From: an uncultured Chlorobiaceae bacterium
GTDB taxonomy: Bacteria; Bacteroidota; Ignavibacteria; UBA10030; SZUA-254
Direction: 5' to 3'
Assembly: GCA_964596065.1 (NCBI GenBank)
Contig: CAZQSM010000001.1
Location: 1,623-65,622, forward strand
DNA length: 64,000 nt
Shown: positions 48,317 through 62,414 of the stretch, in pieces
Layout of the letters: the number at the start of each line of letters is the position of its first letter
Position numbering within the stretch: the first letter of the stretch is position 1
Notes under the pieces: model-generated
Databases searched by the model: none
Told to the model about the DNA's origin: nothing
The model's input: the letters and a program-made list of their open reading frames with translations, nothing else
Position numbers and translations under genes: made by a program

Positions 48317-48345
48317 ATTATCGTCTTTTTTAGTCAAATTGTCAA
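48317..48345 (-). promoter_or_regulatory. sigma70-type promoter with the -35 overlapping the tyrA stop
   Basis: TTGACA (48345-48340) - 17 nt - GATAAT (48322-48317). Confidence 0.75.
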
Positions 48346-49091
48346 TTGTCGTCGCGCCGATTTCGGAGGGATTCGGTTTTTCGTTGAATGTGGCGAACAA
48401 GCCTGCCTAATGATGCCGGGCAGTACGGGTTGAAACGGTACAGATCCCGTATCAGATCGGGCGAGTTTCGGGCGGCCCGCCGGGCGATGATCCGGAGATG
48501 TTCGAAGCCCGCGGTCGTCATTCCTGGTACGCCTGGTCGCGCGGCTTGAGGGAACGTCTCCCCGATAAACTGGGTAAGGAAAAGACTGGATGACATTGAT
48601 TTATCGTGAGTAACGGCAGTCATCTCTATTGGCTTCAATCCCAGGGAAACGATGGTGCGCAGCAGCAGAAGGTGACAGGCCGGACTGCTCCTTCCCCGAC
48701 AGACGGCGACCGGATGACCGCCCTCTCCCGCCGGGGGAGTGTCGGGCCCGAAGAGGGGGTGAAGGCCGGCATATGATACCCCCGCGGGAAGGTGGGTTCC
48801 AAGCCACTTCAGCGGCGCGATTTTAACGGCGCAGAGGTCGGCAACGAATGCGCCATTCCTGACCCTCGACCCGTTGGATTCCAGGAATTGTTTCAGGCGG
48901 AGCGCCGGAAGCGCAAATATGATCAGGTCGAACCCGCCCAGGTCGGAGACCGATGCCCGTTTGAGTCCCCACCGAAGTCGGACCCCCCGACGCGTTTCGA
49001 GGATGTGGACGGTAAACCGCCTCCTGAGCAGCGCGGCGGCGAACGCGCCGAATCGACCATACCCGACGAGCAGGAGCGACGGTTTTTTCAT
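48342..49091 (-). CDS. tyrA: Prephenate/arogenate dehydrogenase (TyrA, short monofunctional form)
   Basis: GYGRFG Rossmann motif, DLCAVK, GLHPLFGP, HDKSM. Confidence 0.82.
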   Translation of the reverse strand: MKKPSLLLVGYGRFGAFAAALLRRRFTVHILETRRGVRLRWGLKRASVSDLGGFDLIIFALPALRLKQFLESNGSRVRNGAFVADLCAVKIAPLKWLGTHLPAGVSYAGLHPLFGPDTPPAGEGGHPVAVCRGRSSPACHLLLLRTIVSLGLKPIEMTAVTHDKSMSSSLFLTQFIGETFPQAARPGVPGMTTAGFEHLRIIARRAARNSPDLIRDLYRFNPYCPASLGRLVRHIQRKTESLRNRRDDN

Positions 49092-50422
49092 CGTTTCTGC
49101 ACCTGCCGGGAGTGGAGGAAAATCGCGGAGTAGACGCTCCGGAGTAGATGTTCGTCGAGGAGTGTCTGGTCGGCAACAAGGAGGAGCCTCCGGAGAATGG
49201 CGCGTTCCCTGCCGGGATCGCCGATTCTCGATCCGGCGCGCTTTTTCATCGAACCGAGCTCTCTCACCAGGCCCTGCCGTTCGTTGAGGAGGATCAGGAG
49301 GGCGTCATCGACGAGATCGATCTCCCGGCGCACCGCCGCGGGGGAGAGGGGCGGGCGGAGGAGCGACTGGCGGAGCAGGTGGTCCGCGATCACGACGGCG
49401 ATCATCGATTCGACGACCGGGACGACCCTGGGGCAGATGCACGGGTCGTGTCTCCCGGTCACGGAGATGCCGGCACTCCGTCCCCGCGTGTCCACCGTCC
49501 GCTGTCTCCTGCCGATCGACGAGGGTGGCTTCACGGCGACGCGGAGCACGATCTCCTCGCCGTTCGAAATTCCGCCGAGGATGCCGCCGGCGTGATTGGT
49601 GCGGGTGCGGACCCTCCCATCGCGACGGGAAACGTAGAGCTGATCGTTGTGCTCGCTCCCGTTCATCTTCGCCGCGGAAAACCCGGAACCGATTTCGACC
49701 CCCTTGACGGCCGGAATCGACATCACCGCCCGTGAGAGCTCCGCGTCGAGCTTGTCGAAAACCGGATCGCCGAGGCCCGCCGGGCACCCGCGTACCACCG
49801 CTTCCACGATCCCGCCGGCTGAATCCCCCTGTTTCCTCAGTGCCGTGATTCGCCGCTCCATCCTGAGCGCGGCCGCCGGGTCGGGGCAGCGCATCGGGTT
49901 CCGTTCGATCTCCGAGCGGACGACGCGACCGGCGCGGACGCCTGCCGCCTCGAGCGTGTAGGCAAAGATATCGATGCCCCGCTTCGCCAGGAGCTGCTTC
50001 GCCAGCCCCCCGGCGGCGACTCGCCCGGCCGTTTCGCGTCCGGAGGACCTGCCCCCGCCCCGGTAGTCGTGGATGCCGTACTTCGACAGGTACGTGTAGC
50101 CGGCGTGTCCGGGGCGGAAGAGATGACGCACGGATCTATACGCGCCGGGGTCCTGGTCTTCGTTCCTGATGAGCAGGCAGATCGGGGTGCCGAGGGTCTT
50201 CCCCCTGTAGACGCCGCTGACGATCTCCACGCGGTCCGTTTCCCGCCTCGGGGAGGTCACCGCGCTCTGGCCGGGGCGGCGGCGGTTGAGTTCATTCTGG
50301 ATGGCCGCTTCCGAAATCTTCAGGTTCGGGCGCACGCCGTCGATCAGGACGCCGACGGCCTTCCCGTGGCTCTCCCCGAACGTGGTAATCCTGAATAACG
50401 TGCCGATGGTATTTCCTGCCAT
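49088..50422 (-). CDS. aroC: Chorismate synthase fused to a C-terminal AroQ-type chorismate mutase
   Basis: TTFGESHG, RPGHA, RSSGRET, GRHDPC for AroC; then RREIDLVD..LLNER..MK..DPGRE..SRQVQ for AroQ; GGAG RBS before ATG 50422. Confidence 0.92.
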   Translation of the reverse strand: MAGNTIGTLFRITTFGESHGKAVGVLIDGVRPNLKISEAAIQNELNRRRPGQSAVTSPRRETDRVEIVSGVYRGKTLGTPICLLIRNEDQDPGAYRSVRHLFRPGHAGYTYLSKYGIHDYRGGGRSSGRETAGRVAAGGLAKQLLAKRGIDIFAYTLEAAGVRAGRVVRSEIERNPMRCPDPAAALRMERRITALRKQGDSAGGIVEAVVRGCPAGLGDPVFDKLDAELSRAVMSIPAVKGVEIGSGFSAAKMNGSEHNDQLYVSRRDGRVRTRTNHAGGILGGISNGEEIVLRVAVKPPSSIGRRQRTVDTRGRSAGISVTGRHDPCICPRVVPVVESMIAVVIADHLLRQSLLRPPLSPAAVRREIDLVDDALLILLNERQGLVRELGSMKKRAGSRIGDPGRERAILRRLLLVADQTLLDEHLLRSVYSAIFLHSRQVQKR

Positions 50423-50437
50423 TGGATTCACTCCGTG

Positions 50438-51700
50438 TCAGTTGAATTTTTCAAGTTCCGTCCAGAAACCCGGGAACGACTTCGCGACGCATCCCGGGTT
50501 GACGATCCGCACGCCGTCCAGGCCGAGTCCGGCCACGGCGAAACTCATGGCGATGCGATGGTCCCGGTAGGTTTCGATGACGGCGCCGCGCAGCGGCCCG
50601 GGGCTGATCGTCAGCGTCCCGCCGGAGACTCCGGCCCGGGCACCGATCTTCCCCAGCTCGTTGCAGAGCGCCGAGAGGCGGTCGGTCTCCTTGCGCTTCA
50701 GGTGTGCGACACCCGTTATGGCGGATGGTGTCGAGGCGAAGGCCGCGGCGACGGCGAGGGGAGGGACGCTGTCCGGGAGGGGGTTCATGTCGGTAGTGAT
50801 GCCCCGGAGGGTCCCGCCTTCGACGGTCACTCCGTCCGCGTCAAAACCGACAGCGCACCCCATCTCCCGGAGGAGGAGGAAGCAGCCGACGTCCCCCTGG
50901 AGGGAGTCGCGCCGGACGCCGCGGATCGTGACCCGGCTCTTCGTGATGGCCGCGGCGGCGCCGAAGAAGGCCGCCGATGAGAGGTCCGGCTCGACGTCAT
51001 ATTCGCGGGCGCGGTAGTGTCCCGCTGTGGCGAGCCTGTACGCTGCTCCCGCGGCCTCGGCACCGACACCGAAGTCGCGCATCACAGCGATTGTCATCGC
51101 GACATAGGGGGCGGAACTGAGGTCGCCGGCCAGCGTCATGACCAGCGGCGTCCGGCAAAAGGGCGCGACCAGGAGCAGCGCGGAGAGGAACTGGCTGCTT
51201 TCGTCCGCGGCGAGGGCGACGCGGCCGCCGAACGGCGCGCCGCCCCTGACCGTCACGGGAGGAAAACCGTCACGGCAGGAAGCATCCACGCCGGCTTCCA
51301 CGAGCGCCTGGACGAGCGGGGCCACGGGGCGTTGCAGCATCTCGGCGTCGCCGGTGAGCGTCGTGGCGCCAGGAACGAGGGCCGAGAACGCGGTCAGGAA
51401 ACGGAGGCAGGTCCCGGCGTTGCCGACGTGGATGGTCCGGTCACCGGCGGGCGGGCGTCCGCCGCAGCCGGCGATCCGTAGTGCACCGTGAGTTTCGTCG
51501 ATCCCGACGCCGAACTGCCGCAGCGCCCTGACCATCGTCAACGAATCGGATGAGGGTGACGGGTGCCGAATGACGCTCACGCCGTCGGCGAGCGCAGCGG
51601 CGATCAGCGCCCGCTGCGTATAGCTCTTCGACGGGGGGAGATCGACTGCCACGTTCCTTCGAACGGCCGGGCGGATGAGGCGCGGTTCCGTGCCGGTCAC
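50438..51700 (-). CDS. aroA: 3-phosphoshikimate 1-carboxyvinyltransferase (EPSP synthase)
   Basis: PPSKSYTQR, GNAGTCLRF, SSQFLSALL, KETDRL, DHRIAMSF. Confidence 0.95.
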   Translation of the reverse strand: MTGTEPRLIRPAVRRNVAVDLPPSKSYTQRALIAAALADGVSVIRHPSPSSDSLTMVRALRQFGVGIDETHGALRIAGCGGRPPAGDRTIHVGNAGTCLRFLTAFSALVPGATTLTGDAEMLQRPVAPLVQALVEAGVDASCRDGFPPVTVRGGAPFGGRVALAADESSQFLSALLLVAPFCRTPLVMTLAGDLSSAPYVAMTIAVMRDFGVGAEAAGAAYRLATAGHYRAREYDVEPDLSSAAFFGAAAAITKSRVTIRGVRRDSLQGDVGCFLLLREMGCAVGFDADGVTVEGGTLRGITTDMNPLPDSVPPLAVAAAFASTPSAITGVAHLKRKETDRLSALCNELGKIGARAGVSGGTLTISPGPLRGAVIETYRDHRIAMSFAVAGLGLDGVRIVNPGCVAKSFPGFWTELEKFN

Positions 51701-53130
51701 AGGAGTTCCAGGAACATCGCCGACTGCAATCGGGCCTGCGCGCCGTAGAGCTCTGCGCCGGTGATCACCGGAACTCCGCTGCGCCGGGCGTCCGCGACCA
51801 GGGTGGTCCGCCCACCGGGCGGGTTGGCGAAATCGCAGACCAGTTCATATCGGCCGAGGGAGGAGGGGGGGACGATCCTGCCGGCGCCCCGCGTTCCCGT
51901 TCCGGAATCCATCCCCACAGGCGTGGCGTTCACCAGGACGTCACCCTCGAAATCTGGTTGCTCCGGGAGCGGGATCCAGTCGCACCCGAACCGACGGGCC
52001 AGTTCGCGCGCGGCCCGCGTGTCGCGCCCCGCGATGGTGACCCTCGCGCCGGACACCGCGCCGACGCCGGCGACGGTGCCCGCTGTCCCACCTGTTCCAA
52101 GGACGAGGACCCGTTTGCCGGCGGGGTGGATCCGTTCCCTCAGCAACGAAAGGAGGGCGTGGAAATCGGTGTTCAGCCCGCGGAGCATGCCACGCTTGCG
52201 GAGTACCGTGTTCACCGAACCGGTGATGAGCGCGGAATCATCCAGCCGGTCGAGGAAGCCCGCGATCGACCGCTTGAAGGGCATGGTGACGCTCAGGCCG
52301 GTGATGTTCCCCGACATCAGGTCGAGGAACGCGCCGTCGTCGTCCGACGCGAAGTTGACGTACACGGCGTTTGCCCGTTTCTTGATGAATATGGCGTTAT
52401 GGTAGCGGATGCCGCCGCTGAACTCCACGGGATAGCCGAGGAGGCCGAAAACCCGCGTTCGGCGATCAAGACGGTCCGCGCGGTAGAGACCGGCCAGGTC
52501 GGCGATGGGAAGCTGCCCGGGTCCGGTGGGGTTGGCGGCGTCCGCCGACGCGAATGTCATCGCGCCGCCGAACACCCCCTGAAGGACCCTTGTGTAGCTC
52601 CCGAACCCTCCCATCGCGAGCGCGACCGCCGGCTGCCGGAGCGCGCGGGCCTCCGCAAGGATGTCGAGGACCCGACCGGTATCGCCGAAACAGACCGGGG
52701 TCGCGGCGATTTTTACGAAGGCCGGTTTCAGGGCGGCCATCGCGCGGAAGCGGGCGGGGAGATCGGCGGGCACACGACGGGTGTCGTGATACGAGAGAAT
52801 GATCCGTTGCCGGCCCGCCGCGCCGAAGAGTTTCCGGAGCAGGGGGGGGCCGAGGGAGAATTCCGCGTCCAGATATTCAGCGCCCGCCGACGCGGCTTCC
52901 ATCAGGAGATCCGCGGCCCGTCGCGGGGAACCGTCGAACAACCCTCCTTCCCGGCGGCTCCGGCAGGTGACGATCAACGGGGGCCGGGGGCGCGCCAGCA
53001 ATGGTCCGAGGGCGAATGTGTCGAGCCCGTCGATCCGAAGTTCCGCGGGGCTCTTCATCCCCGAGTGCCGTTTGAGGAATTTCGCGGCCTCCCGGAGCGA
53101 TCGGGGGGCTGACGAAGGGACGATGATCAT
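51697..53130 (-). CDS. aroDE: Bifunctional type-I 3-dehydroquinate dehydratase / shikimate dehydrogenase (AroD-AroE)
   Basis: AELRID, IVTCR..EGG, ILSYH, VKIA, AMG; then GLLGYP, GLSVTMPFK, GSVNT, NTD, LGTGGTA, NATPVGM. Confidence 0.88.
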   Translation of the reverse strand: MIIVPSSAPRSLREAAKFLKRHSGMKSPAELRIDGLDTFALGPLLARPRPPLIVTCRSRREGGLFDGSPRRAADLLMEAASAGAEYLDAEFSLGPPLLRKLFGAAGRQRIILSYHDTRRVPADLPARFRAMAALKPAFVKIAATPVCFGDTGRVLDILAEARALRQPAVALAMGGFGSYTRVLQGVFGGAMTFASADAANPTGPGQLPIADLAGLYRADRLDRRTRVFGLLGYPVEFSGGIRYHNAIFIKKRANAVYVNFASDDDGAFLDLMSGNITGLSVTMPFKRSIAGFLDRLDDSALITGSVNTVLRKRGMLRGLNTDFHALLSLLRERIHPAGKRVLVLGTGGTAGTVAGVGAVSGARVTIAGRDTRAARELARRFGCDWIPLPEQPDFEGDVLVNATPVGMDSGTGTRGAGRIVPPSSLGRYELVCDFANPPGGRTTLVADARRSGVPVITGAELYGAQARLQSAMFLELL

Positions 53131-54209
53131 CGCCCCAGCGCCTCTTCGAGGAGCGGCCGGGGAACCTCGACTCCCCAAACCCCCCGGCCGATGGCGGAAA
53201 GGAGGGAAAACCGGACGATGCCGTCCGCCCGCTTCTTGTCGAACCGGAGGGCCCGCAGGAGGGCGGACCGGGTCAGGTTCGCCGGAACCGTGACTGGCAG
53301 GCCGTAGGAGCTGAGGAGTTCGCGGATGCGCTCAAGATCGCGACCGTCGATCATCCCCATGGCGCAGGAGATCCGCGCCTCGGCCGCCATCCCGATCGCA
53401 ACCGCCTCGCCGTGCGTGACCCTGTATCCGGAGGTGTGTTCCACTGCGTGCCCGATGGTATGGCCGAAATTGAGGAGCTTCCTCCCCGCGGTCTCGCGTT
53501 CATCGGCGGCGACGAGCTTTCCCTTGAGCGCGCACGAACGGGCTATCACCCGGGAGACCAATGACATGTTTCGCGCGCGGATCGGGCCGACCGACCGGCC
53601 GAGAAGGTCCACGAACCGACGGTCGAGGATGAGGCCGATCTTGATCACCTCGGCAAACCCCCGGATATATTCCCTTTCAGGGAGGGTACGGAGGAATGCG
53701 GGATTCGTCAGAACGGCCACGGGCTGGTGGAAGGAGCCGAGGAGATTTTTTCCCATCGGGTGGTCGATCCCGACCTTGCCGCCGATCGAGCTGTCGACCT
53801 GCGCTACGAGCGATGTGGGCACCTGGACCAGCCGTACCCCCCGGAGGATCGTGGCGGCAGCGAAGCCCGCCAGGTCGCCGACGACCCCGCCCCCGAAGGC
53901 GGCGACGACGCACTCCCTGTCCGCCCCGGAGCGGATGAGCTCGTCCTCGAGCCGGTCACGCGTCCGGCGGCTTTTGTTCCGCTCGCCGGTGGGGAGGACG
54001 ATCGTGCGGAATCGCGCGCCACGGCCTGCGAGCATCCGTTCGAGGGTTTCGCCATGATACGAGTGCACGTTTCGGTCGGTGACGAGGAAGAGGGTCGTTC
54101 CCCGCGCGGCGGCGGCCAGGCGCGACGCGACCTCTGCCGTTCCGGAGCAGAAATGAACGGGACACACCCGGGAAGGGGCAGGCGACCATCTGATGACGAG
54201 ACTCTTCAT
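53127..54209 (-). CDS. aroB: 3-dehydroquinate synthase
   Basis: GERNKS, AFGGGVVGDLAGF, QVPTSL.AQVDSSIGGK, KNLLGSF, LNFGHTIGHA, HGEAVAIG; start ATG 54209. Confidence 0.93.
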   Translation of the reverse strand: MKSLVIRWSPAPSRVCPVHFCSGTAEVASRLAAAARGTTLFLVTDRNVHSYHGETLERMLAGRGARFRTIVLPTGERNKSRRTRDRLEDELIRSGADRECVVAAFGGGVVGDLAGFAAATILRGVRLVQVPTSLVAQVDSSIGGKVGIDHPMGKNLLGSFHQPVAVLTNPAFLRTLPEREYIRGFAEVIKIGLILDRRFVDLLGRSVGPIRARNMSLVSRVIARSCALKGKLVAADERETAGRKLLNFGHTIGHAVEHTSGYRVTHGEAVAIGMAAEARISCAMGMIDGRDLERIRELLSSYGLPVTVPANLTRSALLRALRFDKKRADGIVRFSLLSAIGRGVWGVEVPRPLLEEALGR

Positions 54210-54216
54210 CGTGCGG

Positions 54217-55020
54217 TCACCGGGAATCGAGCGCCGTCCGGAGCGTGGAGGTGAATTCCGTCGCGGCCCGCCTTCCTTCGGCTGGCGGTCCGCCGGCGAG
54301 CCTCGAGACCAACGCGCTCCCCACGATGACGCCGTCGCAAGCCGCGGCCACGGTCCGTGCAGAAGCGGCGTCCGAGATGCCGAACCCGGCGAGGAACGGG
54401 GTCCGTCCCACCAAAGGCCGCGCCCGGCGCAGGAAGGCAAGCGTGTCATCCCCGACTCCGTGACGGACCCCGGTGACTCCGAGCGTCGAGACGCCGTAGA
54501 CGAAACCGGTCGAGACCATGCCAATTTCGACGATCCGTTCATCAGGGGTGGTCTGCGAAACGAGAAAGATGGTCGACAGGCCTGCCGATGCCGCGAGCGA
54601 CCGGTAGTGGGTGCTTTCCTCCGGGGGAAGATCGGGTATGATCATCCCATCCGCACCGACGGCCGCAGCGTCACGGACGAACGCCCCGAGGCCATAACTG
54701 AAGAGAGGGTTGGCATAACTCATCAATATAATCGGGATGGCGGCGCATTTCCTAATTTCGCATACCATTCCGAGGACGGACGCGGGAGTGACTCCGAGAG
54801 CCAGGGCGCGGTGGCTGCTCGCCTGGATGACCGGCCCGTCCGCGATCGGATCGGAGAAGGGTATCCCGATCTCGACGATGTCGGCTCCCGCCTCCGAAAG
54901 TCCTGCCACGAGGCCAGGGAGGAGGTCGGGGGCCGGAAGGCCGGCGGTAATGAAGACTGTAAGGACCTTACGCCCGGATCCGACGTTGGCGGCGAGCACC
55001 CGTTCGAGCGCCGTCATCAC
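54217..55020 (-). CDS. trpA: Tryptophan synthase alpha chain
   Basis: EIGIPFSDPIADGPVIQ, MSYAN, PDLP, GVTG, GFGIS, DGVIVGSA. Confidence 0.95.
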   Translation of the reverse strand: MMTALERVLAANVGSGRKVLTVFITAGLPAPDLLPGLVAGLSEAGADIVEIGIPFSDPIADGPVIQASSHRALALGVTPASVLGMVCEIRKCAAIPIILMSYANPLFSYGLGAFVRDAAAVGADGMIIPDLPPEESTHYRSLAASAGLSTIFLVSQTTPDERIVEIGMVSTGFVYGVSTLGVTGVRHGVGDDTLAFLRRARPLVGRTPFLAGFGISDAASARTVAAACDGVIVGSALVSRLAGGPPAEGRRAATEFTSTLRTALDSR

Positions 55021-56225
55021 CGATCACCAACCGCCGCGTGCTTCGCGAGCGCGCCGAGGTCCTTGTCGCCACGGCCGGAGAGGCCGACGACGACCACGTC
55101 TCCCCGGTCCGTCTGCGGCATCAGGCGTTCGAGATGGGCGATCGCGTGCGCCGACTCGAGCGCGGGGAGGATCCCCTCAAGGGCCGTCAGCATCAGCGCC
55201 GCGTCGAGCGCCTCCCGGTCAGACGCGGACGCGCAGATCAGCCGGCCCGCACTCCTGAGGTAACTCAGTTCCGGGCCGACGCCCGGATAGTCGAGCCCCG
55301 CGGAGATGGAATGCGCCGGAAGGATCTGTCCTGACTCGTCCTGGAGGAGGTACGACCTCGAGCCGTGCAGGATACCGGGTCGGCCCGCCGAGAGGGACGC
55401 GGCGTGGCGGGAAGTGCCGAGCCCCTCCCCGGCCGCCTCGACCGCAACAAGTCCGGCCCCGGTCCGGATGAATTCGTGGAAGAGCCCGATCGCGTTGCTC
55501 CCGCCTCCGACGCACGCCACGAGGTGGGCGGGGGTCCCGAGACCCGCCTCGCCGAGCTGACCCGCCACCTCGCGCCCGATCACAGACTGGAAGTCGCGAA
55601 CGATGACCGGGTAGGGGTGGGGACCAACGGCGGAACCGAGGATGTAGAACGTGTCGCGCACGTTGGTAACCCAGTCGCGGAGCGCTTCACTCGTTGCGTC
55701 CTTGAGGGTTCCGGTGCCTGCGGAAACGGGGACAAGGTCGGCCCCGAGAAGTTTCATCCGCCGCACGTTGAGCGCCTGCCGCTCCATGTCGGCGGTGCCC
55801 ATGTAAATGACGCACGGGATCTTCATGAGCGCTGCGACGGTCGCCGTGGCCACGCCGTGCTGGCCGGCGCCGGTCTCCGCCACGATCCGGCGCTTGCCCG
55901 AGCGGCTGGCGAGGAGCGCCTGGCCGAGCGTGTTGTTGATTTTATGGGCCCCGGTGTGGCAGAGGTCCTCCCGCTTCAGGTAGATGGTCCCCCGGCCGTA
56001 ACGCGCCGTGAGGTTGTCGGCCCGGTAGAGTGGCGTGGGACGTCCCGCGAAATCCCTCAGTAGCCGCCGGAGCGTATCGGCGAAATCGGGATCGTCGGCG
56101 GCTTCCCGGTACGCACGCTCGAGCTCGGTGAGCGGGGCGATAAGGGTTTCGGGGACATATCTCCCCCCGAACTCCCCGAAACGGCCGGCTGCGTCAGGGT
56201 AGGGGTACGGGTCGGCACGGGTCAT
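55017..56225 (-). CDS. trpB: Tryptophan synthase beta chain
   Basis: [54 protein letters not shown]; start ATG 56225. Confidence 0.97.
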
Positions 56226-57268
56226 CGGTGCGCCTCCTCGGATTGTGGGGCGCCAAGAAAAGTTCGTCCCAGCGCCGGGGCGATCGCGCTGATCCGCCGG
56301 ATGAGTTCCCCGAGCCTGGCGGGTTTGAGCGACTGGTATCCGTCGGAGAGCGCCGACGCGGGGTCCGCGTGCGTCTCGATCATCAGGCCGTCGGCCCCCG
56401 CCGCCACGGCGGCGAGCGCCATGTCGGACACGAGCTCCCACGCCCCCGTGCCATGGCTCGGGTCGACGATGATCGGCAGGTGCGAGGCTTTTCTGACCAC
56501 CGGGACGGCGTTCAGGTCGAGCGTAAACCGGGTGGCCGGTTCAAAGGTCCGGATCCCCCGCTCGCACAGGATGACCTCGTAGTTTCCGGCGGCGACGATG
56601 TATTCCGCCGCCATCAGGAACTCCTCGATGGTCGACGACATCCCCCGCTTGAGGAGGACCGGTTTACCGGCCCTGCCGACAGCCTCGAGCAGCGGGTAAT
56701 TCTGCATGTTTCGTGCGCCGATCTGAACGATGTCGGCGACCGTCGAAACGTCGTCCACCGTCGCGGGCTCCATCACCTCGGTGACGATCCGCATCCCGGT
56801 CAGCGCACGTGCCTCCGCGAGGTATTCGAGCGCCGCCCCCTTGAGGCCCCTGAACGCGTAGGGTGATGTGCGCGGTTTGAAGGCGCCGCCCCGGAGGAAC
56901 GTGACCCCGAGTTCGCTCAGCGTCCCGGCGATCCCGACAATCTGGTCGCGGCTCTCGACCGAACAGGGGCCGGCGATCAACGCGATTTCGTTGCCGCCGA
57001 TCGCCCGGTCGCCGAACGGGATGACGGTATTTTCCCGCTTGACCTCCCGGCTGACAAGTTTGTACGGCTTCGAGACCGCAATCGCCTCGACGACGCCGGG
57101 AAGGTTGAGGAACAGGTCGGGATCGAGTTTCGAATGGTTGCCGGTGATGCCGATCGCGATCCGGCGCTCGCCGGGAATTTCGTGGGGAACGAAACCGAGG
57201 TCCCTGATCTTCCGGGCGACGGCGTCCACGCGGTTCCGGCCCGCGTCGAGATTCATGATGATGAGCAT
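56222..57268 (-). CDS. aroF: DAHP synthase type I-beta with N-terminal ferredoxin-like regulatory domain
   Basis: [48 protein letters not shown]. Confidence 0.93.
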
Positions 57269-57277
57269 ACGCGCCTT

Positions 57278-57907
57278 TCAGTTGATGGTGGCTGATCTGA
57301 TGTTTCCACAGAAATTCCTGACGAGGACCGGGTCCTTGATTCCCGGTCGCGCTTCCGTCCCGCTGCCGACGTCCACGGCGTAAGGGCGGACCCGCCCGGC
57401 AATCTCGACGACGTTCGACGGGGTGAGGCCCCCCGCCAGAAACAGTTTTCGGGAGCGGGAGAGGGTAGTCGCGAATTCGAGGTCGGCCGGCGTACCCGAT
57501 CCCCCGTAGACCCCCGGGCCCCCTCCGTCGACCATCGCGGCGAAGACGTCGTACGCGTCAGGGGAGGGGGATGGCACCCCCTCCGCAGGGGGCCTGAACA
57601 CCTTGATCACCGGGAGGGTGATCAGGCGGCAGAGCCCGGGTGGTTCGTCGCCGCTCAGCTGGACGAGCCGGATACCGGACGCGGTCGCGGCCCCCGCCAC
57701 CGCCGCCGCCGAGGGATTGACGAAGACCCCGACAGGGATGACATCCACCGGGAGACTCCTGATGATCGTTCCCGCCAGCCCGGGGGTGATGAACCTCTTG
57801 CTCATCGGGACAAAGATGAATCCGAGGTAATCAGCGCCGGCCCCGGCGCACACGAGTGCGTCGTCGAGGTTCGTGATGCCGCAGATTTTAATCCTGATGG
57901 AGTTCAT
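57278..57907 (-). CDS. trpF: Phosphoribosylanthranilate isomerase
   Basis: IKICGIT, LGFIF..SKR, VGVFVN, YGGSG, LAGGL, DVGSG.E..PG.KD. Confidence 0.92.
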   Translation of the reverse strand: MNSIRIKICGITNLDDALVCAGAGADYLGFIFVPMSKRFITPGLAGTIIRSLPVDVIPVGVFVNPSAAAVAGAATASGIRLVQLSGDEPPGLCRLITLPVIKVFRPPAEGVPSPSPDAYDVFAAMVDGGGPGVYGGSGTPADLEFATTLSRSRKLFLAGGLTPSNVVEIAGRVRPYAVDVGSGTEARPGIKDPVLVRNFCGNIRSATIN

Positions 57908-58679
57908 CGATCATCGCCTCGAGGCATCGCCCCGGTTCCGGGTCCCGCATGAAGTATTCACCCATCAGCACGGCGTCGACTCCCGACCCCGCGACGCGCC
58001 GGACGTCCGCCGCCGACCGGAGTCCGCTTTCGCTCACGGTGACGACACCGCGGGGGAGGAGCTCTCCGATCCTCGGCGTGGTCTGGAGGTCGACGGAAAA
58101 ATCGCCGAGGTCCCGGTTGTTGATCCCGACGAGGCGAACGACCGAGAAATCGATCATCTCCAGCTCTTCGGGGCGGTGCACCTCGACGAGGCACTCCATG
58201 CCCAGTTCGGCGGCCCTGCCGTGCAGGTCCCGGAGGCGGCCCGCGTCGAGGATCGAGGCGATCAGGAGGATCGCGTCGGCGCCGAGCGATTTAGCCTCCA
58301 CCACCTGGATCTCCTCGATGACGAAATCCTTCCGCAGCACCGGGACGGGGGAGACGGCGCGCACGGCGGCCAGGTCCCCGGGGCTCCCGGAGAAGAAACG
58401 GACATCGGTCAGGACCGATACCGCAGAGGCGCCGTTCGACGCGTATGCCACCGCGAGGCCTGCGGGGTCATCCGTCCCCCTGATCATACCGGCGGACGGC
58501 GACGCCCGCTTGATCTCAGCGATCACCGCGGGGCGCCGGGCCCGGACAATGGCGTCGCGGAGCGACCGCACGGGGAGATGGAATCCGGGAAGGTCATCGA
58601 ATCCGCCGCCAGGCCTGGCTCGGCGGAGCACCGCCGCTTCCTCGCGTTTTACCGCGACGATCCGGTCGAGGATGGTCAT
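57888..58679 (-). CDS. trpC: Indole-3-glycerol phosphate synthase
   Basis: IAEIKRASPS, SVLTD..FF.G, LRKDF, GADAILL, LVEVH, GINNRDL, SESG. Confidence 0.95.
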   Translation of the reverse strand: MTILDRIVAVKREEAAVLRRARPGGGFDDLPGFHLPVRSLRDAIVRARRPAVIAEIKRASPSAGMIRGTDDPAGLAVAYASNGASAVSVLTDVRFFSGSPGDLAAVRAVSPVPVLRKDFVIEEIQVVEAKSLGADAILLIASILDAGRLRDLHGRAAELGMECLVEVHRPEELEMIDFSVVRLVGINNRDLGDFSVDLQTTPRIGELLPRGVVTVSESGLRSAADVRRVAGSGVDAVLMGEYFMRDPEPGRCLEAMIDELHQD

Positions 58680-59701
58680 CGGGTCGTGTACTCCACCAGG
58701 CGCCGGAGCGCCACGAGGGCACTCCCCGCGTCGATCGACACGGCGCAGCGTTCGTACGCCTCAGCATGTGTCAACCCATCGCGGGCGACCATCAGCCCGA
58801 GCGAGGCGTTCATCAGGACGAAGTCCCTCGCCGGCCCGGGGGTCCCTGAAAGGACCTCGAGCGCGATCTGCGCGTTGCGCGCGGGCGAGCCGCCGGCGAC
58901 GGCGCCGAGGCAGGGGGCGCGGACGAGCCCGAACGTTGACGGGTCGATGACGTATCGTCGTTCCTCCGTTGTCAGCCTGAACTCCCGGACCCGGGTCGGA
59001 GCCTGCGGGGACATCTCATCGAGCCCGTCGTCGGCGTTGAGGACCATGGCGGCGGCGGGACGCGTTTCCCGGAGGATCGAGGCGAGCGTGTCCGCGGCCG
59101 AGGAGTTGTACGCCCCGACCACCTGGCGGCGGACGCCGGCGGGGTTCGCGAGGGGGCCGAGGAGGTTGAAGCAGGTGCGGAACCCGAGGTCCGCGCGGGC
59201 GCGCGAGACGGTCTTCATCGCGGGATGGTAGATCGGGGCGAAGAGGAACCCGACGCCGGTTTCGTTGATGCACGCCTCCATCGTCTCCGGGGGAGCGTCG
59301 ATCCTGACGCCGAGCTCGCGTAGAACGTCGGCGCTGCCGGAAGCGCTCGACACCGAGCGGTTTCCATGCTTGGCGACCGTCACTCCGGTTCCCGCGAGGA
59401 CGAACGCGGCGACCGTGGAGACGTTGAAGGTCCCGAGGCCGTCGCCGCCCGTTCCGCACACGTCCACGGCATCGGGGTCGTCCAGGGTGACGCGGCGGGC
59501 GCGTTCCCGGAAGGCGTCGAGGAACCCGAGGAGTTCCTCCGTGCGGTCGCCCCTGACGCGGAGCGCGGCAAGATAGCCGCCGATCTGCGCGTCGGTCGCC
59601 GCGCCATCCATGATCTCCCCCATGGCCAGGGCCGCTTCGTCTCTCGAGAGGTGCGCACCTTCGACCGTCATGGCGATGCAGTATCTCAGCCCGGCAGTCA
59701 C
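58676..59701 (-). CDS. trpD: Anthranilate phosphoribosyltransferase
   Basis: DVCGTGGDG..TFNVST, KHGNRSVSS.SGSAD, FAPIYHPAMK, FNLLGPL.NP, GLDE; GTG start 59701 overlapping the trpG stop. Confidence 0.95.
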   Translation of the reverse strand: MTAGLRYCIAMTVEGAHLSRDEAALAMGEIMDGAATDAQIGGYLAALRVRGDRTEELLGFLDAFRERARRVTLDDPDAVDVCGTGGDGLGTFNVSTVAAFVLAGTGVTVAKHGNRSVSSASGSADVLRELGVRIDAPPETMEACINETGVGFLFAPIYHPAMKTVSRARADLGFRTCFNLLGPLANPAGVRRQVVGAYNSSAADTLASILRETRPAAAMVLNADDGLDEMSPQAPTRVREFRLTTEERRYVIDPSTFGLVRAPCLGAVAGGSPARNAQIALEVLSGTPGPARDFVLMNASLGLMVARDGLTHAEAYERCAVSIDAGSALVALRRLVEYTTR

Positions 59702-60264
59702 AGCGTCTCGAGCCAGTTGTTCACGATCGCCGCGCCCGCGGGAGTCAGGATCGATTCCGGGTGAAATTGAACTCCCCGCACCGGGTGGGAGGAGTGCCGG
59801 ATGCCCATGATCGTCCCGTCCTCCGTTTCGGCGGTCACGCGGAGGGCCTCCGGAAGGTTCCACCGGGAAACGACGAGTGAGTGATACCGTCCTGCGCCAA
59901 ACGGGCTCGCGACGCCGCGGAAGATATCGGTTCCGTCGTGCCGGACGGCCGAGGCGCGGCCGTGAACGCACTCCACGTGCCGGACGACCTCGGCGCCGTA
60001 GGCGACCCCGATCGCCTGGTGCCCGAGGCAGACGCCGAGGATCGGAATGGAAGATCCGAAACGCCGTATCAGCCCGAGCGTGACCCCCGCCTGTTCAGGA
60101 CGCCCGGGGCCGGGGGAGAGGACGATCCCCCCGGGCGACGAGGCGGCCACGTCTTCGGACGTAACGGCATCGTTCCTCACGACCATGACCTCCCGTCCAG
60201 CCACTCCGATCATATGGGCAAGGTTATGGGTGAATGAGTCGTAGTTGTCTACCAGGAGAATCAT
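59698..60264 (-). CDS. trpG: Anthranilate synthase component II
   Basis: DNYDSFT, LSPGPG.P, GVCLGHQ, RYHSL, QFHPES. Confidence 0.95.
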   Translation of the reverse strand: MILLVDNYDSFTHNLAHMIGVAGREVMVVRNDAVTSEDVAASSPGGIVLSPGPGRPEQAGVTLGLIRRFGSSIPILGVCLGHQAIGVAYGAEVVRHVECVHGRASAVRHDGTDIFRGVASPFGAGRYHSLVVSRWNLPEALRVTAETEDGTIMGIRHSSHPVRGVQFHPESILTPAGAAIVNNWLETL

Positions 60265-61742
60265 CCGTCGACCTCATTCGCCGATCGCACCGCCTCGAAC
60301 AGGGCCAGGAGTTTGTGGCGGAGCTCCTCGGTCTCCCTCAGGGGGTCGGAGGCTGAAACGATTCCCGCACCAGCCTGCAGGTGGAACTCCCCGCCGAACG
60401 CGAGCATCGTCCGGATCGCCAGGCAAAAATCCATATTCCCCGAACCGTCGAAATAGCCGACCGCGCCGGCGTAGAACCCCCTGCGGATCCGCTCCATCTC
60501 GTCGATGATCTCCATCGCGCGGATCTTCGGGGCGCCTGACACCGTCCCGGCCGGGAAGAGCGCCTTCAGCGCGTCGACGGGGCCCGTCCCGGGGAGCACC
60601 GTCCCGCTGACGCGGGATACGAGGTGCATCACGTGGGAAAACCGTTCAACCTGCATCAGCCGGTCGACGACAACCGAACCCTGCCGGCAGACCCGGGAGA
60701 GATCGTTCCTTCCCAGGTCGACAAGCATGACATGTTCCGAGCGTTCTTTCTCGTCGGCGAGCAGCTCCGCGGCGATCCTGTCGTCCTCCCCGGCCGTCCG
60801 CCCCCTCGGCCGGGTTCCCGCGATCGGCACATGCTCGAGGAGGCCGCCGTGCAACCTCGCCAGCGTCTCTGGCGAGGACCCGAGGAGCACAGTCCCGCCG
60901 AAATCCATGAAAAAATGGTAGGGGGAGGGGTTGAGCATTCTGAGAGCGCGGTACACCTGGAACGGATCCCCCTCGAACCCCACGCGCGCCCGTTCGGAGA
61001 GGACGACCTGGAATATATCGCCGGCCCTGATGTATTCCTTCACCCGTTCAACCTTCGCCGGGAAGGCGCTGAGGTCGAACCGGGCCTCCCCCGCGCAGTA
61101 GCCGCCGCCCGTTCTCCCTCCAGCGCCGATCCGGAGCGCTCCCCTCAGCCGTCCGAGCCGTTCCACGAGTTCTTCGTATAGGTCCCCGGGGGACCGTTCA
61201 TCGAACGGATCGGCGTTGACGAACAATCGCACGCTGTGGGTCACGTGATCGAAGACGACCAGGGTGCCGAAGTACCCGAGGAGGCTGTCGGGCGCCCCGA
61301 GTTCGTCGGAGACGCTGCAGGGGATCCGCTCGATCGCGCGGACCTCGTCATACCCGATGAAGCCGACGAGCCCCGCCGCGAGGCGGGGAAGCTCGTCGCC
61401 GGGGTGGATGCGGATCGACCCCAGCAGCGTCGACGCGGCGTCGAAGATGTTCCCATCCGACGGCAGCCCCCCCGGCGTCGTTCCGCCGGAACGGCGCCGG
61501 AGTGTCGTGGTGTTACCGCGAGATTCCAGGATCGTCGTGGCGTCGAATCCGAGGAACGAATACCGCGCCAGGTGTTCCCCTCCTTCGACGCTTTCCAGGA
61601 GGAACGATCCGTTCGCGGCATCCGCGAGCGACAGGTACGCCCCCACTGGGGTGAGCATGTCCCCGGGGATCGTCGTCGAGACCGAAGCGACGAATCCCGC
61701 GCGGAGGCGTTCCAGAAATGTGTTTCGATCCGGCGTGATCAT
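60261..61742 (-). CDS. trpE: Anthranilate synthase component I
   Basis: LLESVEGG...ARYSF, GDIFQVVLS, NPSPY, PIAGTRPR, KERSEHVMLVDLGRND, GTVSGAPK.RAM, QAGAGIV. Confidence 0.96.
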   Translation of the reverse strand: MITPDRNTFLERLRAGFVASVSTTIPGDMLTPVGAYLSLADAANGSFLLESVEGGEHLARYSFLGFDATTILESRGNTTTLRRRSGGTTPGGLPSDGNIFDAASTLLGSIRIHPGDELPRLAAGLVGFIGYDEVRAIERIPCSVSDELGAPDSLLGYFGTLVVFDHVTHSVRLFVNADPFDERSPGDLYEELVERLGRLRGALRIGAGGRTGGGYCAGEARFDLSAFPAKVERVKEYIRAGDIFQVVLSERARVGFEGDPFQVYRALRMLNPSPYHFFMDFGGTVLLGSSPETLARLHGGLLEHVPIAGTRPRGRTAGEDDRIAAELLADEKERSEHVMLVDLGRNDLSRVCRQGSVVVDRLMQVERFSHVMHLVSRVSGTVLPGTGPVDALKALFPAGTVSGAPKIRAMEIIDEMERIRRGFYAGAVGYFDGSGNMDFCLAIRTMLAFGGEFHLQAGAGIVSASDPLRETEELRHKLLALFEAVRSANEVDG

Positions 61743-61750
61743 GGCCCTGA

Positions 61751-61786
61751 AAATAAAAAAACCCTTTCCGGGTTCCGGAAAGGGTT
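61751..61786 (-). terminator. Attenuator terminator of the trp leader
   Basis: AACCCTTTCCGG-aac-CCGGAAAGGGTT (12-bp stem) followed by TTTTTATTT, ending 9 nt before the trpE ATG. Confidence 0.9.
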
Positions 61787-61808
61787 CGAGTGTAAACGCC
61801 TGGGACGG

Positions 61809-61922
61809 TCAGCGGTGCATTCGTGTCCTGCCGGAACGATCGGATCGATCCGCGTGCCACCAACCGCCGCAGCCGGGGTTGGAGGCCGTCCCGAATGTCT
61901 GGTACCGTTGCGTCATCGTCAT
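61809..61922 (-). CDS. trpL: trp operon leader peptide (37 aa, tandem Trp codons)
   Basis: MTMTQRYQTFGTASNPGCGGWWHADRSDRSGRTRMHR*, lying between the promoter and the attenuator terminator. Confidence 0.85.
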   Translation of the reverse strand: MTMTQRYQTFGTASNPGCGGWWHADRSDRSGRTRMHR

Positions 61923-61928
61923 AATTCA

Positions 61929-61957
61929 AGTATCTGGAATTGCCGCGAGATTGTCAA
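61929..61957 (-). promoter_or_regulatory. sigma70-type promoter of the trp-aro-tyr operon
   Basis: TTGACA (61957-61952) - 17 nt - GATACT (61934-61929). Confidence 0.8.
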
Positions 61958-61994
61958 GGGTCCTGAAAAATATTTCCCGCGGCCCCGCAGGCCG

Positions 61995-62414
61995 TCAGGC
62001 GGCGTACACATGGTAGAGAATGAGGTAAATCATCACCCCGGTCACCGAAACGTAGAGCCAGACCGGATATGCCCATTGCACAACCCGTTTATGGGCCCCG
62101 AAGCGGGAACCGAGGGCGTGGTAGAGCGCGAACCCGACCAGCGGGACGTTGACCACGGCGAGGATCGTGTGGGAGAGCAGGAGGGCGAAATAGAGGGGCC
62201 GGGCGATGCCGGTACCGGGGAACGATGTCGAGCCGTGCAGGTAATGGTAGACGAGGTATGAAACGAGGAAGGCGACGGAAAAACCGACGGCGCGGAGCAT
62301 GAAGGTCCGGTGCGCCTCCCGGTCGCCAGCCCTGATCTTCGATCGTCCGGCCAGGAGCATCGCCGCGGACGAGAGGTTCAGGAGGGCGTTCAGGGCGGGG
62401 AGGTATTCGGTCAT
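61995..62414 (-). CDS. DUF420 (CtaM-like) membrane protein
   Basis: LPALNALLN, HRTFM, FLVSYL.YH, HTILA, WLYVSVTGV. Confidence 0.88.
   Translation of the reverse strand: MTEYLPALNALLNLSSAAMLLAGRSKIRAGDREAHRTFMLRAVGFSVAFLVSYLVYHYLHGSTSFPGTGIARPLYFALLLSHTILAVVNVPLVGFALYHALGSRFGAHKRVVQWAYPVWLYVSVTGVMIYLILYHVYAA

Follow-up and report, generated by a model that had tools for sequence, protein, structure and literature searches.

A leader-peptide attenuator with tandem tryptophan codons predicted upstream of the trp–shikimate–tyrA operon of an uncultured Ignavibacteria bacterium

The trpL leader of Escherichia coli and other enterobacteria (RF00513) contains a short ORF with two adjacent Trp codons, followed by RNA segments that pair as 1:2, 2:3 or 3:4 and by an intrinsic terminator just before trpE, so that a ribosome stalled for want of tryptophan covers segment 1 and frees segment 2. 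Attenuators of the trp genes have also been described by comparative analysis in the actinobacteria Corynebacterium and Streptomyces (PMC1262725), and in Sinorhizobium meliloti the attenuator RNA released from trpL (rnTrpL) and the leader peptide (peTrpL) act in trans as well (PMC6614838, PMC7298713). We describe here an element from the window, i.e. the whole 64,000-nucleotide stretch of DNA that was analysed, which resembles the E. coli leader in its ORF, its alternative pairings and its terminator, and in which a stalled ribosome is predicted to act in the same way. It is, very probably, a transcription attenuator of the ribosome-mediated, leader-peptide kind, with charged tRNA-Trp as the signal sensed, and most likely it switches on a 13-gene operon when tryptophan is short.

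The operon in question (48342–61742; this and all other features described lie on the minus strand) consists of 13 tightly packed genes, assigned with Pfam, in the order trpE-trpG-trpD-trpC-trpF-aroF(DAHP synthase)-trpB-trpA-aroB-aroD/E-aroA-aroC::CM-tyrA, a gene order common across the family. The start codon of trpE is at 61742, the DAHP synthase carries an FXD domain, aroC::CM is a chorismate synthase::chorismate mutase fusion and the last gene is tyrA-like. Terminator-like sites within the operon are not in excess (7 found against 7.9 expected from shuffles), and no canonical terminator was seen 3′ of tyrA. The final codons of tyrA coincide in part with a strong promoter-like site, TTGACA-17-GATAAT (48317–48345; score 11/12), which probably serves to express the gene that follows (1031 aa, 48281–45186) and sets the 3′ limit of the controlled operon. 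On the upstream side, the 3′ end of a DUF420 gene lies at 61995, and a terminator-like GC hairpin with AAAUAUUUUU (61966–61991; hairpin sequence CCTGCGGGGCCGCGGG AAATATTTTT) ends the DUF420/SCO1/ABC-2 unit. In sister species a GC hairpin followed by AAATATTT occupies the equivalent position, just 5′ of the trp promoter. With the element, the promoter of this 13.6-kb aromatic amino-acid operon is located, as is its only evident point of control.

The original prediction placed at this point a promoter and a 37-residue leader peptide with Trp at codons 21 and 22, and both are present. The promoter is of the sigma-70 type (61929–61957), with TTGACA at 61957–61952, a 17-nt spacer and GATACT at 61934–61929; it scores 10/12 and is the sole promoter-like site between 61000 and 62600, where shuffled sequences give 0.3. 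The leader ORF (61809–61922; product MTMTQRYQTFGTASNPGCGGWWHADRSDRSGRTRMHR) has 37 codons and a UGA stop, and its two regulatory Trp codons (TGG TGG) lie at 61857–61862. The stop codon (61809–61811) follows the Trp pair by 45 nt and precedes the terminator stem by 21 nt. Only 6 nt separate the end of the –10 hexamer from the leader ATG, in the window as in three sister species, and a TTGACA-17-TAnnnT promoter directly 5′ of the leader ATG is found in about 46 of 54 relatives from the order, the gap being 5–8 nt in 23 of the order's leaders and 10–17 nt in most others. The short gap leaves no space for a Shine–Dalgarno site, and leader translation is consequently predicted to be leaderless or near-leaderless. 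Shine–Dalgarno sites are little used in the phylum to which the genome belongs. From the promoter spacing we infer that transcription starts at the leader AUG or a few bases from it, so that the mRNA on which the window leader is translated probably has no 5′ leader or next to none, a feature that goes beyond the routine of such elements; the sequencing runs that match the locus are all DNA metagenomes (sand, bioreactor and soil), and in the bioreactor the organism is abundant.

Three RNA elements follow the Trp codons. The terminator consists of segment 3 (GAACCCUUUCCGG, 61775–61787), an AAC loop (61774–61772) and segment 4 (CCGGAAAGGGUUU, 61759–61771), and is followed by a U tract, UUUUAUUUU (61750–61758), which reads U4-A-U4 and continues the three U of the stem. 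The whole hairpin (61787–61759) has a predicted stability of –20.4 kcal/mol and ends 16 nt 5′ of the trpE ATG; its presence with a U tract agrees with the original prediction, which had counted 12 bp where we count 13. Segment 2 (61827–61840) has two possible partners. Its portion AUCGUUCCG (61840–61832) pairs with segment 1 (CGGAUCGAU, 61844–61852) to form a protector hairpin of eight pairs and one U·U mismatch (–8.6 kcal/mol), whereas GUUCCGG.AGG (61837–61827) pairs with the 5′ arm and loop of the terminator. In the latter helix GUUCCGG (61837–61831) is complementary to CCGGAAC (61778–61772), and with the AGG × CCU extension included (CCU..CCGGAAC, 61784–61772) the duplex reaches –14.6 kcal/mol. 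The antiterminator helix and the terminator are mutually exclusive. Segment 1 starts 4 nt after the Trp codons and thus covers nucleotides 5–13 beyond them, inside the footprint of a ribosome stalled there. The minimum free energy structure of the whole leader contains 1:2 and 3:4 (z = –2.6 against dinucleotide shuffles), which is more than chance would give. All positions stated in the original prediction proved correct.

We searched for TrpE in 40 relatives and read the DNA upstream. Sister species and many other genera have the same layout, namely a Trp-rich small ORF that stops 18–30 nt short of a strong terminator, with trpE beyond. From 17 of these sequences a covariance model was built, which matched 93 of 277 genomes and 42 of 110 genera in the order; after reading of the sequences, 54 leaders from 54 genomes were kept in a curated alignment. 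Trp codons, usually in a cluster of two to five, are present in all 54, with trpE downstream wherever this was checked, so that the Trp leaders expected upstream of trpE in relatives are indeed there. Elsewhere in the class, 12 of 14 inspected matches are leaders with WW to WWWW before trpE, and the whole arrangement recurs in more than 60 other genomes. Two Trp leaders (..NNWWWP.. and ..NNWWWH..) upstream of trpE come from one family of another Bacteroidota class, where the terminator differs (ACCCACUGCAG...UGGAGUGGGU), and leader-peptide Trp attenuation therefore reaches beyond the Ignavibacteria within the Bacteroidota. Matches to the model at E values above about 1e-5 include terminator-only false positives, i.e. 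SAM-I and TPP riboswitches and gene-end terminators. Two SAM-I riboswitches, before an O-acetylhomoserine sulfhydrylase-like gene, and one TPP riboswitch, all from the order, carry an ACCYUU..AAGGGU-type terminator, and it is this common terminator, seemingly the house style of the lineage, that accounts for the weak matches. A single metagenome scan for genus-type terminators returned only the copies of two known sister species and unrelated terminators, and the genus sample consequently stays at six species; a TrpE search of genome contigs gave only distant TrpE from other phyla (at most 48% identity), and a loose terminator pattern run over genome contigs yielded mostly noise.

Beyond the Trp cluster the peptide sequence is unconserved among relatives, although its length and spacings are kept. 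Within the genus, whose TrpE proteins are 58–71% identical to that of the window, TGGTGGC is invariant in the alignment of six species, the distance from the Trp codons to the stop is 45 nt in all six and that from the stop to the terminator 21–23 nt; exactly 20 codons precede the Trp pair in four of the six, even though the peptide they encode is unconserved. The window leader has two Trp codons only, where most relatives have three to five.

The pairings are likewise maintained. Over the 54 sequences the terminator is paired in 95.7% of cells, compensatory changes are found in 8 of its 13 pairs, and its covariation score is 0.381 against at most 0.19 for slid controls. For the antiterminator, the complementarity between GUUCCGG and CCGGAAC that the original prediction had proposed was confirmed in the window, and across the six species of the genus GUUCCGG.AGG × CCU..CCGGAAC is paired in 90% of cells against at most 67% when slid, with an invariant TTCCG core and one compensation (G–C to A–U). 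In the leader family at large, it is in every case the 3′ end of the ORF that pairs most strongly with the terminator 5′ arm and loop, and in a fixed alignment register 60.7% of cells are paired against 30–47% when slid. Terminators that have changed are matched by changes in the leader, as seen for GCCCCCGUGGAUCC with GGUGGAAUCCCCGAGGC and, in a second lineage, for CCCUCUCUGGUUCACC with GGUGAAACAGUGAGG. The observed pairing and covariation scores were reached by none of 500 shuffles, with the same outcome on the alignment behind the covariance model, and in an alignment-free comparison the leader 3′ end gave a mean duplex energy of –14.1 kcal/mol with the terminator arm of its own genome, against –10.7 with arms from elsewhere and –9.75 with clearly different arms (0 of 5000 permutations as low; Wilcoxon p = 1.2e-7), significance that is overstated because the sequences are related and the tests ignore phylogeny, the direction still being clear. 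Against mononucleotide shuffles the antiterminator duplex gives modest z-scores (–0.5 to –2.8), and it is for this reason that the register, cross-pairing and covariation tests were used. Conservation of the Trp codons and pairings in orthologous leaders had been set beforehand as a point on which the prediction could fail, and the outcome favours an attenuator.

The protector hairpin presents a more complicated picture. It is present in the window where it had been predicted, 4 nt after the Trp codons, yet its exact pairing occurs in the window genome only: the CGGAUCGAU/AUCGUUCCG helix was sought in the five sister species and is absent from them, so covariation cannot support that pairing. 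RNAalifold applied to the genus independently finds a helix in which six bases starting 3 nt after the Trp codons pair with the GGCAGC-type 3′ half of segment 2 (GUUGCC/GGCAGC, UUGCC/GGCAG and GCGUCC/GGAUGC in sister species). This genus-wide helix is paired in 80.6% of cells against at most 42% when slid, and both sides have changed in three pairs, its covariation being weak in six species (observed values reached by 22–43 of 500 shuffles). In the genus-wide register the window makes three of the six pairs only; it has its own longer helix at the same anchor. It therefore looks as if the function, that of a hairpin which follows the Trp codons, would be melted by a ribosome stalled on them and captures segment 2, is what has been conserved in the genus.

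From these elements we infer the following order of folding and response to tryptophan. The 37-codon leader would be translated behind the advancing RNA polymerase. With tryptophan plentiful, the ribosome would clear the Trp codons, cross segment 2 and reach the UGA, the 1:2 hairpin would re-form behind it before the terminator 5′ arm leaves the polymerase and, with segment 2 thus locked, 3:4 would fold and transcription would end at the U tract. With tryptophan scarce, the ribosome would stall with a Trp codon in its A site and cover segment 1, the free GUUCCGG.AGG would pair with CCU..CCGGAAC in the upper part of the terminator 5′ arm and in its loop and, in the absence of a terminator, the polymerase would enter the trp–shikimate–tyrA operon.

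Folding calculations bear on this scheme in two ways. In most relatives segment 2 is formed by the last 18 nt of the ORF and is therefore masked by a ribosome on the stop codon; in a partition-function model of the relatives outside the genus, upstream engagement of the terminator 5′ arm has a probability of 0.50 when the ribosome is on the last Trp codon, 0.32 when it is at the stop codon and 0.31 without a ribosome (0.50 vs 0.32, p = 1.6e-4). In the genus of the window, the stop has come to lie 15 nt past segment 2 through a 6-nt insertion and the addition of three codons, as a result of which a terminating ribosome uncovers it: with the ribosome on the UGA, its trailing edge lies one base downstream of segment 2. 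Here the comparison of folding with and without a ribosome mask, which had been proposed as a check, gave no separation: in the window transcript cut before the terminator 3′ arm the antiterminator forms in all three states (P of 0.61 with the ribosome stalled, 0.66 with it at the stop and 0.59 without it). The proposal that the element follows the logic of E. coli trpL is supported by conservation, covariation and own-arm pairing, but not by equilibrium folding of the window, which is the same whether or not the ribosome is stalled. As such folding does not separate the states, the switch would have to be kinetic; by analogy with E. coli, it is plausible that the 1:2 hairpin, with its 3-nt loop, snaps shut before segment 3 emerges, and the spacing fits.

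The masking of segment 2 in most relatives also suggests a design with three elements, in which a ribosome translating the last 12 or so codons over segment 2 itself blocks antitermination, and the 1:2 hairpin has a role only on untranslated leaders or none at all. The 1:2 pairing of the window, unconserved in the sister species, is what such a design would lead one to expect. We nevertheless consider it unlikely for this genus, because the displaced stop takes a terminating ribosome off segment 2 in all six species, and all six keep a hairpin 3–4 nt after the Trp codons that captures part of segment 2.

Less likely still is a decayed or weakened attenuator that terminates poorly or responds weakly, its chief effect being a promoter-proximal pause or partial termination. 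The displaced stop, the re-invented protector hairpin and the lack of state separation at equilibrium could all be taken as signs of decay, as could a complement of two Trp codons, the fewest regulatory codons in the family; yet two suffice for the E. coli trpL leader, as textbooks have it, and the invariant TGGTGGC and TTCCG, the fixed spacings kept at the observed TrpE divergence and the stability of the terminator argue for purifying selection.

Regulators of other kinds were looked for in the window genome, a 2.7-Mb metagenome-assembled genome that is 96% complete. Neither TRAP (MtrB, PF02081) nor TrpR (PF01371) is present, the former being detected in the B. subtilis control and the latter in control genomes, and neither the region nor the genome as a whole matches T-box (RF00230), a search to which control genomes respond. 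An Rfam cmscan of 61500–62200 gave seven matches at E ≤ 10, all well below the gathering scores and mostly on the terminator hairpin, and RF00513 Trp_leader was not among them. That the terminator is a constitutive damper or answers to an RNA-binding protein, a small molecule or a tRNA, the WW ORF being incidental, is very improbable: the link between ORF and regulation is a prediction from sequence, and no Rfam match rises above threshold in the region, but the absence of TRAP, TrpR and T-box from the genome, the Trp codons in every one of the order's 54 leaders while the rest of the peptide diverges freely, and the sister elements with the same terminator that carry His, Cys and Tyr runs before his, cys and DAHP-synthase genes all speak against it.

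These sister elements, picked up by the covariance model, extend the comparison beyond tryptophan. At eight loci in order-level relatives, His-rich leader ORFs (e.g. ...HVHHHHHHGDD...) with a near-identical terminator, GCCCUUCUUGGAAnnCCAGGAAGGGC, precede a hisZ-like gene (Pfam tRNA-synt_His), an arrangement that suggests a His attenuator sharing its chassis with the Trp one. Cys-rich leaders (...AAVCCCCLTSSC... and ...ASCACCCACA...), one in the family of the window and one in another family of the class, have the same type of terminator before cysK (PALP) and sulfite reductase (NIR_SIR) genes and are candidate Cys leader-peptide attenuators. In a genome from an Ignavibacteria family, a stand-alone DAHP synthase is preceded by a Tyr-rich leader, MTKATKYNVVRYAYYYYATSPLHPGGKRMA (YAYYYY), which closes with GGKRMA-stop and the terminator in the manner usual for these leaders and is a candidate Tyr attenuator.

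The composition of the Trp leaders (W, or W and Y) in turn tracks the content of the operon. Three families, that of the window and two that neighbour it, fuse the trp genes with tyrA and mostly with shikimate genes too; in eight others the operon is confined to trp genes, to which aroF may be added. Leaders of trp–shikimate–tyrA operons interleave Tyr (and Phe) with Trp, as in WYWYWY and NWYWFWYRWY, and those of trp-only operons mostly have WWW(W); in a comparison of 38 genomes the former have a mean of 1.8 Tyr codons within the Trp cluster against 0.35 for the latter (Mann–Whitney p = 4.5e-5, a value that ignores phylogeny). The genus of the window is the exception, as all six species have the long operon, yet there are no Tyr codons in the cluster, which is WW only. 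A joint reading of these patterns is nearly as likely as not: the window element would be a derived member of a class-wide chassis recoded for Trp, Tyr, His or Cys, in which mixed W/Y leaders give dual sensing and from which this genus has lost the Tyr codons. Such a chassis may comprise a promoter abutting a leaderless mini-ORF, an ACCCUUC..GGAAGGGU terminator and an antiterminator strand in the closing codons, which often read ...GGKR(T/M)A-stop, and its targets may include trpE, DAHP synthase, the hisZ-like gene, cysK and sulfite reductase. If W/Y leaders do sense both amino acids, the window genus would have gone back to governing its entire aromatic operon by Trp, and if the joint reading is true the common aromatic pathway and tyrA would answer there to Trp alone, which raises the question of how the supply of Tyr and chorismate is balanced. 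The recurrence of one chassis with His, Cys and Tyr leaders is a testable feature that goes beyond the routine, and so is the match between leader composition and operon content, to which this genus forms the exception.

As to precedent, a comparative genomics study by Vitreschak et al. in 2004 (FEMS Microbiol Lett) reportedly predicted leader-peptide Trp attenuators in the Bacteroidetes/Chlorobi group. In the open literature we found no paper tying the Ignavibacteria to leader peptides or attenuation, and the family is not in Rfam. The suggestion that the lineage had no earlier description therefore holds for Rfam and the open literature searched, and has to be tempered for the wider group by the 2004 predictions. 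The mechanism is that of the textbooks; what is new is its occurrence in a lineage for which neither a catalogue entry nor an open paper was found, together with two particular features, namely a leader ORF that is probably leaderless and a trp–shikimate–tyrA operon that is probably under Trp codons alone. The element adds a well-supported regulatory feature to the annotation of a mostly uncultured lineage and, since the family is missing from Rfam and occurs in at least 54 genomes of one order, a covariance model would allow it to be annotated automatically.

Set beside E. coli trpL, with which it has no sequence or covariance-model similarity, the window leader has 37 codons instead of 14; it is probably leaderless, given the closeness of its AUG to the –10 hexamer, where the E. 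coli leader has a 5′ UTR and a Shine–Dalgarno site; and its segment 2 is within the ORF, with 15 nt between it and the stop codon, where in E. coli segment 2 comes just after the stop. E. coli trp differs further in that no TrpR was found in the window genome and that the window operon, with its 13 genes, extends to tyrA and the shikimate pathway. In Actinobacteria the 5′ UTR is commonly short or missing. With the actinobacterial trp attenuators the element has in common that it represents leader-peptide attenuation outside the Proteobacteria found by comparative genomics (PMC1262725); the phylum is another and the sequences are unrelated. The S. meliloti leader is likewise a Trp leader-peptide attenuator upstream of trpE(G), of unrelated sequence. 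The other trp leaders of the Ignavibacteria belong to the same homologous family. They have the TTGACA-17-TAnnnT promoter abutting the leader ATG and an ACCCUU..GGAAGGGU-type terminator; their last codons supply the antiterminator strand, and they stop 20–30 nt ahead of the terminator. They have WYWYW or WWW(W) where the genus of the window has WW only, and that genus differs from them further in the 6-nt insertion, which creates the GUUCCGG that pairs with the top of the arm and the 3-nt loop, in an ORF three codons longer that takes the stop off segment 2 and in a distinct protector hairpin.
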